Virus record (IMG/VR): IMGVR_UViG_2778261170_000007
DNA from: a virus
Lineage: Duplodnaviria; Heunggongvirae; Uroviricota; Caudoviricetes
DNA length: 4,447 bases
Strand: one strand, 5' to 3'
In this document: piece after piece, positions 1 through 4,447 of the stretch
Numbering within the stretch: position 1 is the first letter of the stretch
How the letters are laid out: every line of letters starts with the position of its first letter
The notes under the pieces: model-generated
What the model was told of the DNA's origin: nothing
Databases searched by the model: none
What the model saw: the letters and a program-made list of their open reading frames with translations, nothing else
Translations under genes and position numbers: made by a program

Positions 1-471
1 CCCGTTCCGTGGCCCTTAGAAACACCACCAACGGGCTGGCTAAAATGTAACGGAGCAGCATTTTCTTCTGAAAAGTATCCCAAACTGGCAAAAGCCTACC
101 CCACCAATAAATTACCGGATTTACGGGGAGAATTTATTCGCGGTTGGGATGATGGGCGCGGGGTGGATGCTGGCCGCGCTTTGCTTAATTGGCAGCCACA
201 CACAATTTTGGACCATGCACACTATATGGAATTATGGACAGGGGACGGACTCGCCGCAGGAAGTGCACGGGAAGGCGTAAATCCAGGAATACTAGCTACA
301 TACGGTGACGGGGGAATAGTTAAAACGGACGAACCCGGTCATAAGGTGCCTTCCTCACTACGAGCTATTAGCTCTCGTAGTGTTAAACGTTATGGTGAAA
401 TTAGTGGAAATGTAGGTACAGAAACTCGCCCTCGCAACGTTGCATTTAATTACATCGTAAGGGCGGCATAA
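1..471 (+). CDS. Tail-fiber tip / receptor-binding cassette A (tail-collar domain family), 5'-partial at window edge
   Basis: Frame 1 is open from nt 1 to TAA at 469-471. Translation PVPWPLETPPTGWLKCNGAAFSSEKYPKLAKAYPTNKLPDLRGEFIRGWDDGRGVDAGR...ETRPRNVAFNYIVRAA carries the tail-collar signature (P-x-GW-x-C-NG, LPDLRG-F-RG-D-GRG). HAH motif at 214-222. Nucleotide-identical in reverse complement to 3977-4447. Confidence 0.8.
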   Translation, partial: PVPWPLETPPTGWLKCNGAAFSSEKYPKLAKAYPTNKLPDLRGEFIRGWDDGRGVDAGRALLNWQPHTILDHAHYMELWTGDGLAAGSAREGVNPGILATYGDGGIVKTDEPGHKVPSSLRAISSRSVKRYGEISGNVGTETRPRNVAFNYIVRAA

Positions 472-943: not shown

Positions 944-967
944 AAACGTTGGTTTAGGGGAAGGCTC
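928..967 (+). repeat. Conserved 40-bp inter-cassette junction, B-C (variant with TTA in place of TTG)
   Basis: Differs from the 456-495 junction by one substitution (TTG to TTA); identical to the minus-strand junction at 3953-3992. Confidence 0.5.
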
Positions 968-983
968 GGCGCTGCCCGTTGGC

Positions 984-1451
984 GTGCCTGTTCCATGGCC
1001 CTCAGCCACACCTCCAACGGGGTGGCTGAAATGCAATGGTGCAGCATTTTCTTCTGAAAAGTACCCAAATCTGGCAAAGGTTTACCCAACGTTAAAATTA
1101 CCTGATTTACGCGGTGAGTTTATCCGTGGTTGGGATGATGGGCGAGGGATTGACTCTGGTCGCTCTATTTTAAGCGAGCAAGGATATGCAACGGAGGATC
1201 ATGCTCACGGATTACCGTCAAAATCAACCGTAGCAACTGACCGCTCAATTAATTTCTACTTTGACGAGGCATGGGCTACTAGTGGTAATACGGGAGTTAT
1301 CAGATGGGGGAACACAAGCGATGCAGGATTGCCAGCCCCTAATTATGGAACTTTTAAAACATATAAACAGTCCGTAGCTAATTTAGGTACTGCTGGCTTA
1401 GAAACCCGCCCTCGTAATGTTGCATTTAATTATATTGTGAGGGCGGATTAA
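984..1451 (+). CDS. Tail-fiber tip / receptor-binding cassette C (tail-collar domain family); conserved module actually begins at 954
   Basis: The conserved module start codon is TTA at 954-956 (TTG in other cassettes); the first possible start is GTG at 984. The frame is open from 933. Subtype-B N-terminal block (PSATPP, YPNLAKVYPTLK), HAH motif at 1200-1208, C-terminus ETRPRNVAFNYIVRAD, TAA at 1449-1451. Confidence 0.7.
   Translation: MPVPWPSATPPTGWLKCNGAAFSSEKYPNLAKVYPTLKLPDLRGEFIRGWDDGRGIDSGRSILSEQGYATEDHAHGLPSKSTVATDRSINFYFDEAWATSGNTGVIRWGNTSDAGLPAPNYGTFKTYKQSVANLGTAGLETRPRNVAFNYIVRAD
987..1147. repeat. Left arm of a 161-bp perfect inverted repeat (pairs with 2333-2493) in the conserved 5' block of cassette C
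   Basis: 10-mer by 10-mer comparison of 987-1147 with the reverse complement of 2333-2493 shows identity, bounded by mismatches at 986 and 1148. Confidence 0.85.
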
Positions 1452-1456
1452 TTATA

Positions 1457-2068
1457 TCAACTGGCTGTAGAAAGTTGTTTTTCAGGCCAGTTGAGATCTG
1501 GTGCCGTGGTTAAATCCATCGCGTTCAGCTCGTCTATATAATCTAGCACGGAGTTAAGCTGCGTGGTTTCTGCCTGCGTCAACTTCCGTCCAGCCCGTAA
1601 TTTCAACTGAATCAGACTAATGGAATCCATCGCAGTATCAATCAATGACTGACGTTTTGTTTCTGCTGCCTCTACAGCTGCACTATGTTGAGCCTCAGTA
1701 TCAACCACCCATTTCTCTCCATCCCATTTGTCGTATGGTGTTAGCGGGGCGATAGTGGTTGTATTTTCCGGATAGTCACCCAACACCGTGATTTCTTCGG
1801 GATTCCCAGTGTCAATGCTATAGACAGTTTCGCCACGATGATCTGGCACATACTCCCATGAACTTAAATCCTCTGAACGGAGAATCGCATAACCTGCTTT
1901 ATGTGAGCCTGGAGCATCCAAACAAGAATTTGCCGGAATACCAACGCCAACAGCAAGATATTCAGTTGATGCAGAAATATATTCCCGATTACCACCATCA
2001 TAGTTATAAACGATAATGTTTCCTGCCTGTATGGCTATAAGTTCGCTATTTAATATCGCATTATCCAT
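1457..2068 (-). CDS. tfa: Phage tail fiber assembly protein (Tfa; Mu U / P2 G / lambda Tfa-like chaperone)
   Basis: 203-aa ORF with a canonical ATG at 2066-2068 and TGA at 1457-1459. The C-terminal region ...KWDGEKWVVDTEAQHSAAVEAAETKRQSLIDTAMDSISLIQLKLRAGRKLTQAETTQLNSVLDYIDELNAMDLTTAPDLNWPE matches, from memory, the conserved C-terminal domain of enterobacterial tail fiber assembly proteins (DTEA..., STAPDIEWP-like end). Its start overlaps the stop of the upstream cassette (TAATGG), indicating translational coupling. Confidence 0.85.
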   Translation of the reverse strand: MDNAILNSELIAIQAGNIIVYNYDGGNREYISASTEYLAVGVGIPANSCLDAPGSHKAGYAILRSEDLSSWEYVPDHRGETVYSIDTGNPEEITVLGDYPENTTTIAPLTPYDKWDGEKWVVDTEAQHSAAVEAAETKRQSLIDTAMDSISLIQLKLRAGRKLTQAETTQLNSVLDYIDELNAMDLTTAPDLNWPEKQLSTAS

Positions 2069-2526
2069 TATGCTGCTCTCACAATATAATTGAAGGCAAT
2101 GTTACGTGGGCGGGTTTCATTCCCCCCAGATAACTCCGTTCTGTATTGACTGGTAAATTTACCATTAATCGCTCCTTCTTGGACGGCGTTATCTGTCGAC
2201 AACAGACTATCCCCCCCTCTGTCATTTGGCACCAATACCGTGTTATCCCACGCGTCCCATGACCGAATATTATGATAATGACTTCCTGTTAACCACCCCT
2301 GTATGCTTAAGATGACCCTTCCCGCATCCACACCTCGCCCATCATCCCAACCACGGATAAACTCACCGCGTAAATCAGGTAATTTTAACGTTGGGTAAAC
2401 CTTTGCCAGATTTGGGTACTTTTCAGAAGAAAATGCTGCACCATTGCATTTCAGCCACCCCGTTGGAGGTGTGGCTGAGGGCCATGGAACAGGTACACCA
2501 ACGGGCAGCGCCGAGCCTTCTCCCAA
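2068..2526 (-). CDS. Tail-fiber tip / receptor-binding cassette D (tail-collar domain family), coupled to tfa
   Basis: TTG at 2524-2526, TAA at 2068-2070 overlapping the tfa ATG. Subtype-B N-terminal block, HYH motif at 2272-2280, C-terminus ETRPRNIAFNYIVRAA. Confidence 0.8.
   Translation of the reverse strand: MGEGSALPVGVPVPWPSATPPTGWLKCNGAAFSSEKYPNLAKVYPTLKLPDLRGEFIRGWDDGRGVDAGRVILSIQGWLTGSHYHNIRSWDAWDNTVLVPNDRGGDSLLSTDNAVQEGAINGKFTSQYRTELSGGNETRPRNIAFNYIVRAA
2333..2493. repeat. Right arm of the 161-bp perfect inverted repeat (pairs with 987-1147) in the conserved 5' block of cassette D
   Basis: See the left arm. Together the two arms bracket 1148-2332, which holds the cassette C variable core, tfa and the cassette D variable core. 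Confidence 0.85.
2341..2439. repeat. 99-bp perfect direct repeat, copy 1 (cassette D 5' block); copy 2 at 2865-2963
   Basis: 2341-2439 is identical to 2865-2963 (atcatcccaaccacggataaactcaccgcg...aaaatgctgc); flanking sequence is similar but has substitutions. Confidence 0.8.
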
Positions 2527-2552
2527 ACCAATGTTTTTATGCTGCCCTTACG
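2513..2552 (-). repeat. Conserved 40-bp inter-cassette junction, E-D (most divergent copy, 3 substitutions)
   Basis: Minus-strand sequence CGTAAGGGCAGCATAAAAACATTGGTTTGGGAGAAGGCTC. Confidence 0.45.
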
Positions 2553-3040
2553 ATGTAATTAAAAGCAACGTTGCGGGGGCGCATTGATATCCATGCCCCG
2601 GTAAAATTATCCTCTGCCGTCCTTTGAGTACCCGTTATGGAGTTATCTGCTGATGCTGGAACATAATCGCTATTATCTCCTGCTTTAGGATTAGCAGGGT
2701 TTCCAACAGTTATAACAGAATCAGCAGTAGCATAAGCGATACCTACTTTGACATTAGTAGTCAGATCGACACCGTAATAATCCTGCAAAGCTGTACGAAT
2801 AAATGTTGCAGTCTGACCACTTAGCAATGAACGCCCTGTATCAATCCCTCTCGAATCATCCCAACCACGGATAAACTCACCGCGTAAATCAGGTAATTTT
2901 AACGTTGGGTAAACCTTTGCCAGATTTGGGTACTTTTCAGAAGAAAATGCTGCTCCGTTACATTTCAGCCACCCCGTTGGCGGTGTGGCTGAGGGCCATG
3001 GAACAGGCACGCCAACGGGCAGCGCCGAGCCTTCCCCCAA
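2537..3040 (-). CDS. Tail-fiber tip / receptor-binding cassette E (tail-collar domain family)
   Basis: TTG at 3038-3040, TAA at 2537-2539. Subtype-B N-terminal block, the longest variable core (about 81 aa, no HxH), C-terminus MRPRNVAFNYIVRAA. Confidence 0.75.
   Translation of the reverse strand: MGEGSALPVGVPVPWPSATPPTGWLKCNGAAFSSEKYPNLAKVYPTLKLPDLRGEFIRGWDDSRGIDTGRSLLSGQTATFIRTALQDYYGVDLTTNVKVGIAYATADSVITVGNPANPKAGDNSDYVPASADNSITGTQRTAEDNFTGAWISMRPRNVAFNYIVRAA
2865..2963. repeat. 99-bp perfect direct repeat, copy 2 (cassette E 5' block)
   Basis: Identical to 2341-2439. Confidence 0.8.
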
Positions 3041-3066
3041 ACCAACGTTTTTATGCCGCCCTTACG
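3027..3066 (-). repeat. Conserved 40-bp inter-cassette junction, F-E
   Basis: Minus-strand sequence identical to the 456-495 junction. Confidence 0.5.
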
Positions 3067-3479
3067 ATATAATTAAACGCAATGTTACGAGGACGAATGG
3101 TTACATAATTAACCCCATCACCTCGTGAAGGCCCTGCAAATGAAAAACGGGAAAATCCTGGTTGGTTAGAAACAATTTGGTCATAGTTATTGATTGAATG
3201 ACCAGACCCAATGTCGAAATTACCTCCGTAATGAGAAAAACTTGTACCATCCTGCCCTGAAAGCAGGGTACGTCCCGCATCAATCCCGCGCCCATCATCC
3301 CAGCCACGGATAAATTCACCGCGTAAATCCGGTAATTTATTGGTGGGGTAGGCTTTTGCCAGTTTGGGATACATTTCAGAAGAAAATGCTGCACCATTGC
3401 ATTTTAGCCAGCCAGTTGGTGGTGTTTCTAAGGGCCACGGAACGGGCACACCAACAGGCAATGCAGAGCCTTCCCCCAA
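3051..3479 (-). CDS. Tail-fiber tip / receptor-binding cassette F (tail-collar domain family)
   Basis: TTG at 3477-3479, TAA at 3051-3053. Subtype-A N-terminal block (PLETPP, EMYPKLAKAYPTNK), the shortest variable core (about 56 aa), C-terminus IRPRNIAFNYIVRAA. Confidence 0.75.
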   Translation of the reverse strand: MGEGSALPVGVPVPWPLETPPTGWLKCNGAAFSSEMYPKLAKAYPTNKLPDLRGEFIRGWDDGRGIDAGRTLLSGQDGTSFSHYGGNFDIGSGHSINNYDQIVSNQPGFSRFSFAGPSRGDGVNYVTIRPRNIAFNYIVRAA

Positions 3480-3505
3480 ACCAACGTTTTTATGCCGCCC
3501 TTACG
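3466..3505 (-). repeat. Conserved 40-bp inter-cassette junction, G-F
   Basis: Minus-strand sequence identical to the 456-495 junction. Confidence 0.5.
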
Positions 3506-3948
3506 ATGTAATTAAATGCGATATTTCGTGGACGGGTTTCACTCCCGCCAGTATTACCAATACTCCCTCGAGAATGAAGTGTCGGTGATGGAATCAAATT
3601 CCCTCCTGTATTTGAGGCATCAAGCCCCCGTCCTTGTGTGTATGTTTTTTTGAAAATTGTCGCCAGCTCCCATTCATCTTTTGTGTCGTAACCATCATTG
3701 GCTACAACAATATGTCGGTGCTTTTCCAGCATTCCTGTCTGAATGCTCAATAAAGCACGTCCCGCATCCACCCCGCGCCCATCATCCCAGCCGCGAATAA
3801 ATTCTCCCCGTAAATCCGGTAATTTATTGGTGGGATAAGCCTTTGCCAGTTTTGGGTACTTTTCAGAAGAAAATGCTGCTCCGTTGCATTTTAGCCAGCC
3901 TGTTGGCGGAGTGGCTGAGGGCCACGGAACAGGTACGCCAACAGGCAA
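3490..3948 (-). CDS. Tail-fiber tip / receptor-binding cassette G (tail-collar domain family); conserved module extends to 3966
   Basis: The conserved module start is TTA at 3964-3966; the first possible start is TTG at 3946-3948. TAA at 3490-3492. Chimeric N-terminal block (PSATPP of subtype B followed by YPKLAKAYPTNK of subtype A), HRH motif at 3712-3720, C-terminus ETRPRNIAFNYIVRAA. Confidence 0.7.
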   Translation of the reverse strand: MPVGVPVPWPSATPPTGWLKCNGAAFSSEKYPKLAKAYPTNKLPDLRGEFIRGWDDGRGVDAGRALLSIQTGMLEKHRHIVVANDGYDTKDEWELATIFKKTYTQGRGLDASNTGGNLIPSPTLHSRGSIGNTGGSETRPRNIAFNYIVRAA

Positions 3949-3952
3949 TGCT

Positions 3953-3992
3953 GAGCCTTCCCCTAAACCAACGTTTTTATGCCGCCCTTACG
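3953..3992 (-). repeat. Conserved 40-bp inter-cassette junction, A'-G (TTA variant)
   Basis: Minus-strand sequence identical to the 928-967 junction. Confidence 0.5.
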
Positions 3993-4447
3993 ATGTAATT
4001 AAATGCAACGTTGCGAGGGCGAGTTTCTGTACCTACATTTCCACTAATTTCACCATAACGTTTAACACTACGAGAGCTAATAGCTCGTAGTGAGGAAGGC
4101 ACCTTATGACCGGGTTCGTCCGTTTTAACTATTCCCCCGTCACCGTATGTAGCTAGTATTCCTGGATTTACGCCTTCCCGTGCACTTCCTGCGGCGAGTC
4201 CGTCCCCTGTCCATAATTCCATATAGTGTGCATGGTCCAAAATTGTGTGTGGCTGCCAATTAAGCAAAGCGCGGCCAGCATCCACCCCGCGCCCATCATC
4301 CCAACCGCGAATAAATTCTCCCCGTAAATCCGGTAATTTATTGGTGGGGTAGGCTTTTGCCAGTTTGGGATACTTTTCAGAAGAAAATGCTGCTCCGTTA
4401 CATTTTAGCCAGCCCGTTGGTGGTGTTTCTAAGGGCCACGGAACGGG
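3965..4447. repeat. Right arm of the perfect >=483-bp inverted repeat (pairs with 1-483)
   Basis: Reverse complement matches 1-483 on the blocks checked; the arm runs to the window edge and so probably continues beyond it. Confidence 0.85.
3977..4447 (-). CDS. Tail-fiber tip / receptor-binding cassette A' (inverted identical copy of cassette A), 5'-partial at window edge
   Basis: The minus-strand frame is open to the window end, with TAA at 3977-3979. The reverse complement of 3965-4447 equals 1-483; this was checked on 1-180, 177-246, 241-300, 308-427 and the 3' junction. Confidence 0.8.
   Translation of the reverse strand, partial: PVPWPLETPPTGWLKCNGAAFSSEKYPKLAKAYPTNKLPDLRGEFIRGWDDGRGVDAGRALLNWQPHTILDHAHYMELWTGDGLAAGSAREGVNPGILATYGDGGIVKTDEPGHKVPSSLRAISSRSVKRYGEISGNVGTETRPRNVAFNYIVRAA

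Follow-up and report, generated by a model that had tools for sequence, protein, structure and literature searches.

The 4447-nucleotide (nt) stretch of viral DNA analyzed here (Caudoviricetes; IMG/VR record IMGVR_UViG_2778261170_000007; the whole stretch is referred to as the window) contains eight short reading frames of one family, three on the + strand (cassettes A, B, and C) and five on the − strand (cassettes D, E, F, G, and H). Very probably, it represents a known kind of switchable tail-fiber tip array from a P1/p15B-like phage-plasmid, namely the invertible part of a multiple-inversion array of the p15B Min type, in which each cassette is the promoterless 3' end of a tail-fiber gene. 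Serine-invertase inversion at 26-bp crossover sites dominates the locus; this process was not named in a first-pass annotation that had read the patchwork of the conserved 5' cassette blocks as a sign of ongoing gene conversion. We found that the patchwork is real: recombination among cassettes, and not independent divergence, was strongly supported, with the pairwise homoplasy index (PHI), maximum-chi-square, and tract-length tests all being significant. It is, however, an expected consequence of many near-identical repeats lying on one molecule, and involves no new mechanism.

Cassette Array and Crossover Sites

The inventory of the array comprises eight 3' tail-fiber cassettes, two of which are identical, six 26-bp invertase sites, and one tail-fiber assembly gene. 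A cassette unit extends between the centres of two successive crossover sites. Each cassette consists of a conserved 5' block of ~216 nt, a non-homologous middle, and a conserved 3' end of ~52 nt that encodes RPRNxAFNYIVRAA, and both the N-terminal block and the C-terminal motif are common to all seven cassette translations. The block was identified as a Phage Tail Collar domain (Pfam PF07484, E ~1e-15) in seven of the seven distinct cassettes. Among solved short and long tail fibers, T4 gp37 and gp12 also match the collar part, and the short tail fiber PDB 9cuy (residues 154-303) aligns across the entire cassette, both conserved ends included. This whole-cassette alignment suggests a single collar fold whose halves are encoded by the conserved 5' block and 3' end, with a variable receptor-binding insert held between them.

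Crossover sites were located with the pattern AAACGTTGGTTTGGGGGAA, which has six matches in the window, two on the + strand and four on the − strand, versus 0 expected by chance. One 26-bp site directly precedes every complete cassette, as in GGCATAAAAACG TT GGTTTGGGGGAA, and the central TT is present in all six. On the + strand, this sequence precedes cassette B (465-490; centre TT at 477-478) and overlaps the stop codon of cassette A, and a second site precedes cassette C (937-962; centre TT at 949-950). The four sites on the − strand precede cassette D (2518-2543; a AAACATTGGTTTGGGAGAA variant whose left half-site is contributed by the 3' end of cassette E), cassette E (3032-3057), cassette F (3471-3496), and cassette G (3958-3983). 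The left half of a site overlaps the stop codon of the preceding cassette, and the reading frame ...NVGLGEGSALPVG... passes through every site into a Collar-domain cassette, so that the cassettes are in-frame alternative 3' segments of a tail-fiber gene. The layout of the sites matches that of the annotated P1 cixL/cixR (AAACC TT GGTTT in P1 cixL and AAACG TT GGTTT here), and the same layout is seen in a published prophage crossover site (EC958 Phi2), GAGAGATAAACGTT GGTTTGGGGGAA (PMC4134206).

The best DNA matches to the window are non-mobilizable plasmids of 92-102 kb from E. coli, Klebsiella, and Salmonella with the P1 gene order. The array in these related plasmids is flanked by the constant part of the tail-fiber gene on one side and by a recombinase gene of 190 amino acids (aa) on the other. 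This Resolvase+HTH_7 gene is found at the array end in every related complete plasmid with the same cassettes, and its product is 72.7% identical to Mu Gin. In plasmids pS159-2 and pLH10-b-1-B, the constant tail-fiber part ends ...TTGATTACC TT GGTTT and is joined to either cassette C or cassette D. Separately, the junction between the constant part and cassette C in pS159-2 (~3950-4090 of the locus) is unlike other junctions, reads GGCGTGCCCGCTGCCCGT, and resembles a short duplication; the tail-fiber gene of that plasmid is annotated as two overlapping coding sequences (CDS), and the expressed gene may be disrupted or hold a sequencing error.

Comparison with pS159-2 (L088, NZ_OY757102.1) was particularly informative about the sites. 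This plasmid carries the same seven cassettes in a different order; A, B, E, and F show zero differences from the window (as does A in pLH10-b-1-B), and D and G differ solely at block column 5. The base at column 5, part of the left half-site, comes after the 3' end of cassette E in both molecules and thus precedes D in the window and G in pS159-2, whereas a marker at column 16, in the right half-site, remains with cassette D in both. With the left half-site marker thus tied to the cassette upstream and the right one to the cassette downstream, the window and pS159-2 differ only by exchanges exactly at the site cores. Judged from these two sequences, whole cassette units have apparently been swapped precisely at the core of the site.

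Mosaic Structure of the Conserved Blocks

Among the translations, the blocks fall into the two amino-acid subtypes that had been recognized at first pass, i.e., PLETPP with YPKLAKAYPTNK in cassettes A (=H), B, and F, and PSATPP with YPNLAKVYPTLK in cassettes C, D, and E. The first group is made up of cassette A (1-471, +), which is an open reading frame truncated at its 5' end (block columns 44-216 correspond to window 1-173; stop codon TAA at 469-471; Collar PF07484, E=1.2e-14), together with its exact inverted copy H (3977-4447, −); cassette B (472-943, +), with block 472-687, variable part 688-891, and conserved 3' end 892-943; and cassette F (3051-3489, −), with block 3274-3489 (PLETPP/MYPKLAKAYPTNK). 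The second group consists of cassettes C (944-1451, +; block 944-1159), D (2068-2536, −; block 2321-2536), and E (2537-3050, −; block 2835-3050). Cassette G (3490-3976, −; block 3761-3976) combines PSATPP with YPKLAKAYPTNK and is chimeric, as had been proposed. The eight 5' blocks of the first-pass annotation amount to only seven distinct ones, because H duplicates A exactly in inverted orientation.

At the nucleotide level, the scheme of two subtypes is too simple. Cassette E carries an A/B-like patch and cassette F a C/D-like patch, both at block columns 91-97, and the block of cassette G is a mosaic of three parts: columns 1-70 are C/D/E-like, columns 79-142 are B-like, with a perfect match of 50 bp (3836-3885 = 563-612), and columns 145-216 are A-like, with a perfect match of 44 bp (3791-3834 = 100-143). 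A 99-bp perfect direct repeat shared by cassettes D and E does exist, its first copy being at 2341-2439 (−, block columns 98-196), but the second copy lies at 2855-2953 (−; offset 514), 10 nt away from the position first given for it (2865-2963), where the strings differ. The same 99 bp, inverted, occurs in cassette C at 1041-1139, which had been missed, and is contained within a 161-bp perfect inverted tract shared by the blocks of C and D (987-1147 on the + strand, with its partner at 2333-2493).

Statistical tests of the blocks gave concordant results. Among 34 informative sites, 40% of site pairs were incompatible, and PHI was far below its permutation distribution (p<0.0002). Maximum-chi-square tests of triplets reached p<0.001 in 6 of 104 cases, with breakpoints scattered along the block (columns 16-25, 70-94, 139-145, 184-197, and 202-206). 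In a permutation test of tract length, the run shared by C and D covered 40 consecutive variable sites (p<0.0002, both pairwise and globally), and that shared by D and E covered 22 sites (p=0.0006 pairwise and p=0.04 globally). The perfect tracts do not simply coincide with the most constrained codons: the 99-nt tract includes 15 columns that vary among A, B, F, and G, 14 of which are third codon positions, and 30 of its columns are polymorphic among 143 related blocks. Constraint therefore fails to explain the tracts, since they cover sites that vary freely in other blocks. Of the 46 variable codons in the block, 36 show synonymous differences only; with most changes silent, the mosaic is probably nearly neutral. 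A search of the window for Chi sites, as recombination hotspots, found zero.

Uncoupling of Blocks and Variable Parts in Related Plasmids

Cassettes were taken from 24 P1-like loci, and their variable parts were grouped into types by similarity. Locus L083 (NZ_OP378608.1, array 3538-8052) was excluded from the statistics; all eight of its cassettes are singleton types and few CDS are annotated in its array, so that the record is probably indel-rich there. Related plasmids hold 4-17 cassettes. Across the 24 plasmid loci, cassettes of the same type differed on average by 7.3% in the block versus 0.83% in the variable part, a difference of about nine-fold. Variable parts at least 99.5% identical were found, across plasmids, on blocks that differed at up to 30-40 of 216 positions, and a single type G variable-part sequence sat on six different blocks up to 17.5% apart.

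This uncoupling extends to the amino-acid subtypes. The type A block is PLETPP/KYPKLAKAYPTN in the window versus PSATPP/KYPNLAKVYPTL in L085 and L087, the type D block is PSATPP/..VYPTL in the window versus PLETPP/MYPKLAKAYPTN in L085-L087, and type G shows three different subtype combinations across plasmids. Within a type, block identity climbs from 0.89 at columns 21-70 to 0.98 at columns 191-216; in other words, the linkage between block and variable part decays with distance from the latter, a pattern beyond what independent divergence can produce.

Chromosomal prophages also share these blocks. In L001, L084, and L008, the block on cassette C is of a PSATPP/EYPELAKAYPTN kind that elsewhere characterizes chromosomal prophage loci with a single block (L023-L082), which suggests exchange between phage-plasmids and chromosomal prophages. 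Given that prophage-typical block types are found on plasmid cassettes, exchange is not confined to the array.

Origin of the Mosaic

Locus-wide homogenization of the blocks, i.e., concerted evolution, was not seen. Blocks of different types were equally similar whether they came from the same plasmid (identity 0.876) or from different plasmids (0.877; permutation p=0.76), and this equality indicates that the blocks draw on a pool shared across the population. The view that gene conversion is ongoing at the locus thus holds in part: a few conversion-like patches, evidently recent, were seen in comparison with plasmid pMTY9975, whose sequence is almost that of the window, but homogenization of the whole locus was not, and the mosaic, including chimera G, was inherited unchanged, because the cassettes are identical to those of pS159-2 except for the site-core exchanges. 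Moreover, chimeras are possible without conversion, in that a reciprocal crossover between inverted blocks also yields them.

It is doubtful that the mosaic was produced mainly by ongoing non-reciprocal conversion among the cassettes of this one array. Such conversion would account for the perfect tracts of 99 nt common to C, D, and E and of 161 nt common to C and D, as well as for the patches in pMTY9975, in which the donors are unchanged, and shared perfect runs are slightly longer within a locus than between loci. Apart from the equal similarity of blocks within and between plasmids, however, perfect runs of at least 99 nt are nearly as frequent in different-plasmid pairs (7.3%) as in same-plasmid pairs (9.4%), no conversion but several inversions have occurred since the window and pS159-2 split, and a same-locus candidate donor was found for only 27 of 179 distinct same-type block differences.

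The opposite extreme, exchange solely between elements (co-resident P1-like plasmids and prophages in the chromosome that share the Collar block) and none inside the array, appears quite improbable. The presence of the block family in many chromosomal prophage loci, the prophage-typical block on cassette C in three of the loci, and the equal similarity of same-locus and different-locus blocks are all compatible with it; nevertheless, the cleanest recent patches are identical to a neighboring block of the same array, and the nearest available partners of any block are the seven to seventeen repeats on one molecule.

Chimera formation by the invertase itself, at secondary (quasi) crossover sites within or at the edges of blocks, is very improbable. 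A quasi-site mechanism was reportedly proposed for tail-fiber mosaics in the 1990s (Sandmeier 1994), and invertase sites do bound every cassette. The site-pattern search of the window, however, found no further site-like sequence inside the blocks with 2-3 mismatches allowed; the sole extra match (2562-2573, 2 mismatches) lies in the conserved 3' end of cassette E and is below the ~1.7 expected by chance. In addition, breakpoints are spread over the whole block, and the decay of linkage is smooth and not stepped.

That the chimeric and identical tracts are artefacts of a short-read assembly walk through near-identical repeats is scarcely credible. The window does end exactly at a 77-mer shared by A and B, and its two copies of cassette A form a perfect inverted terminal repeat, a typical sign of a tangled assembly graph; artefactual duplications in such regions have also been warned of in print (PMC4134206). 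Yet the complete plasmid pS159-2, which was assembled independently, matches every block base for base, that of G included, and several blocks are likewise unchanged in pLH10-b-1-B and pMTY9975. The 5' part of G holds variants that are absent from all other window blocks, and thus could not have been spliced from them; an assembly chimera was accordingly rejected as the origin of block G, given its identity in pS159-2. Finally, divergence without any recombination is practically negligible as an explanation: the block does encode a conserved structural domain in which most codon changes are synonymous, but the columns that vary beneath the tracts, the incompatible site pairs, and the identical variable parts on strongly divergent blocks all contradict it.

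The account best supported is that of a locus switched by inversion whose blocks are re-assorted by homologous exchange both within the array and between elements. Several points weigh against this account. The invertase gene and the constant tail-fiber part lie outside the window, and their presence beside it is presumed from plasmids with identical cassettes. Likewise, the several inversions placed after the split of the window and pS159-2 are deduced by comparing two assemblies. The window and many of the comparison loci may be mixtures of inversion isomers, which would distort cassette order and copy number (PMC4134206). The mean length of shared runs is slightly greater within a plasmid, a weak signal (p ~0.03), and some homogenization inside the array may therefore occur. 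In pMTY9975, columns 85-117 of cassette A equal those of B of the same locus, with B unchanged in both plasmids, and columns 13-43 of cassette C equal those of D, which is also unchanged. These patches look like non-reciprocal conversion, although fixing its direction, and whether the donor lay inside or outside the array, would take a dated phylogeny, and the assembly of pMTY9975, which has 17 cassettes with repeats, may be imperfect.

Proposed Mechanism

An invertase of the Min/Cin/Gin type, encoded beside the array and outside the window, would invert DNA between oppositely oriented sites. Each inversion would fuse a different cassette to the constant 5' part of the tail-fiber gene, and in this way may select the expressed tip and alter host range. 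The crossover site and its conserved flanks together span ~290 nt, of which the array holds 7-8 copies, 80-100% identical and lying in both orientations, and related plasmids and chromosomal prophages also contain this sequence. A repeated region of this kind can serve as a substrate for ordinary homologous recombination, presumably carried out by RecA or by a recombination function of the phage. Crossovers inside the blocks, together with short conversion patches, would then slowly re-assort block segments, within the array and between co-resident elements in some proportion, and would leave behind the two amino-acid subtypes, the chimeric three-part block of G, and the tracts of perfect identity.

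A more far-reaching version of the homologous exchange is tentative, and we regard it as possible more than probable. The Collar-coding block might act as a recombination adapter, with exchange fast enough to spread single receptor-binding inserts among the plasmids of a population on many blocks, the type G insert on its six blocks being an example. The same homology might drive expansion and contraction of the array (4 to 17 cassettes) and the capture of inserts from chromosomal prophages. If so, the nominally constant segment would be the most polymorphic DNA of the locus, and homologous exchange would set the repertoire from which the invertase only selects.

Relation to Known Systems

The window is a Min-type multiple inversion array, a class first described in p15B, whose Min system has been summarized as a multiple DNA inversion system on a P1-related plasmid (Sandmeier, Iida, Arber 1990-1992, via PMC6109161). 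The two are alike in the P1-related backbone, in the serine invertase gene beside the array (seen here in the relatives), in the presence of several sites in both orientations, and in the alternative 3' tail-fiber segments, which in the relatives are fused to a constant 5' part. They differ, p15B being compared by description, only in the number and repertoire of cassettes, of which there are seven distinct ones here and 4-17 in related plasmids. Six crossover sites have reportedly been counted in p15B. The invertase of pJIE250-3, a related P1-like plasmid, was reported to be 98.5% identical to Min (PMC6906374).

The C-segment of P1 (Cin) and the G-segment of Mu (Gin) resemble the array in having 12-bp half-sites around a central dinucleotide, in a gene neighborhood of lydA/B, darA, R, and S, and in the joining of a constant tail-fiber part to a variable one. 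The segments of P1 and Mu differ in having two sites and a pair of long alternative ends, each accompanied by a chaperone gene of its own, whereas at least seven short cassettes are found here with a single chaperone gene, after cassette D only. Shufflons of the R64 type (Rci, pilV) are likewise multi-site inversion arrays that choose one of several C-terminal ends of an adhesin. In R64, a tyrosine recombinase acts at asymmetric sfx sites of 19 bp (PMC11850598). A shufflon of this type was rejected for the window, since the neighboring recombinase in relatives is a serine Resolvase/HTH_7 protein and the sites are near-palindromic 26-bp sites of the Hin family. A diversity-generating retroelement was also rejected: there is no reverse transcriptase reading frame in the window, and the variable parts are non-homologous, not point-mutated copies.

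Recombination at shared tail-fiber segments has been under discussion since the 1990s, and mosaic evolution of tail fibers by this route is said to have been described by Sandmeier (1994) and Haggard-Ljungquist (1992). More recently, tail fibers of Pectobacterium tailocins were reported to evolve as mosaics via shared segments (PMC13195805). As in such mosaics, the conserved segments that flank variable receptor-binding parts serve here as points of exchange, and a pool of alleles is shared across elements; unlike them, up to 17 paralogous copies lie on one molecule, and the patches are tens of nucleotides long within one 216-nt block. Neisseria pilS/pilE and Borrelia vls are arrays of promoterless cassettes with conserved ends and variable cores, in which conversion into an expression site is the switch. 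The cassette design and the conversion-like patches are alike, but the present array is switched by site-specific inversion, with homologous exchange running more slowly alongside as a side process and changing mostly synonymous sites.

The system is thus already known, and its cassettes are the same as those in published plasmid sequences. The quantitative picture offers a useful description and no discovery, and will not surprise specialists. Such arrays are prone to mis-assembly, and their cassettes are readily annotated, wrongly, as many individual "phage tail proteins". Since the Collar block is uncoupled from the receptor-binding part, it is unusable for cassette typing. The nine-fold excess of block over insert divergence and the decay of linkage over 216 nt may be useful for host-range engineering and phage-plasmid epidemiology.

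Window Ends and Array Size

A perfect terminal inverted repeat of 483 bp (1-483 and 3965-4447) places cassette A at both ends of the window, and the first and last 77 nt are a 77-mer common to the A and B blocks (1-77 = 515-591). On balance, we lean slightly toward the A/H duplication being an artefact of an assembly graph at k=77 and not a real duplicate. Two isomers one inversion apart would supply both an A-to-B and an A-to-G junction, which a de Bruijn graph assembler at k=77 could merge into a contig resembling the window. Real inverted duplicates do exist: the complete plasmid pEH09-18-41_2 (L085, NZ_CP063505.1) carries type A at 4046-4559 and, inverted, at 6153-6666, with slightly different blocks. 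The question leaves the conclusions on blocks B to G untouched.

Plasmid pMTY9975 (L093, NZ_CP135665.1, 170-9142) has 17 cassettes, with G present four times, t3 three times, and B, E, and t4 twice each, while the other relatives have 4 to 10. Either unequal homologous exchange has truly expanded this array, or a mixture of isomers was mis-assembled.

Assembly Gene and Neighboring Features

The tail-fiber assembly (chaperone) gene tfa, of 203 aa (1457-2068, −; Pfam Caudo_TAP PF02413, E=3e-30), lies directly downstream of cassette D, and its homologue is labeled tail fiber assembly protein across all related plasmids. The other cassettes are without a chaperone gene of their own, unlike the alternative ends of P1 and Mu. 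Cassette C and tfa meet directly at their 3' ends, and no crossover site separates them. The unit C(+)-tfa(−)-D(−), at 944-2536 of the window, is invariant in 24 of 24 related loci; all + cassettes are located to its left, and all − cassettes to its right. Cassette D (2068-2526) gives a weak Pfam match to the T4 short tail-fiber receptor-binding domain (PF14928, E=5.8e-4), under the curated cut-off. A near-palindrome of 27 nt, CACTACGAGCTATTAGCTCTCGTAGTG, lies within the variable part of cassette A/H, at 356-382 and 4066-4092.

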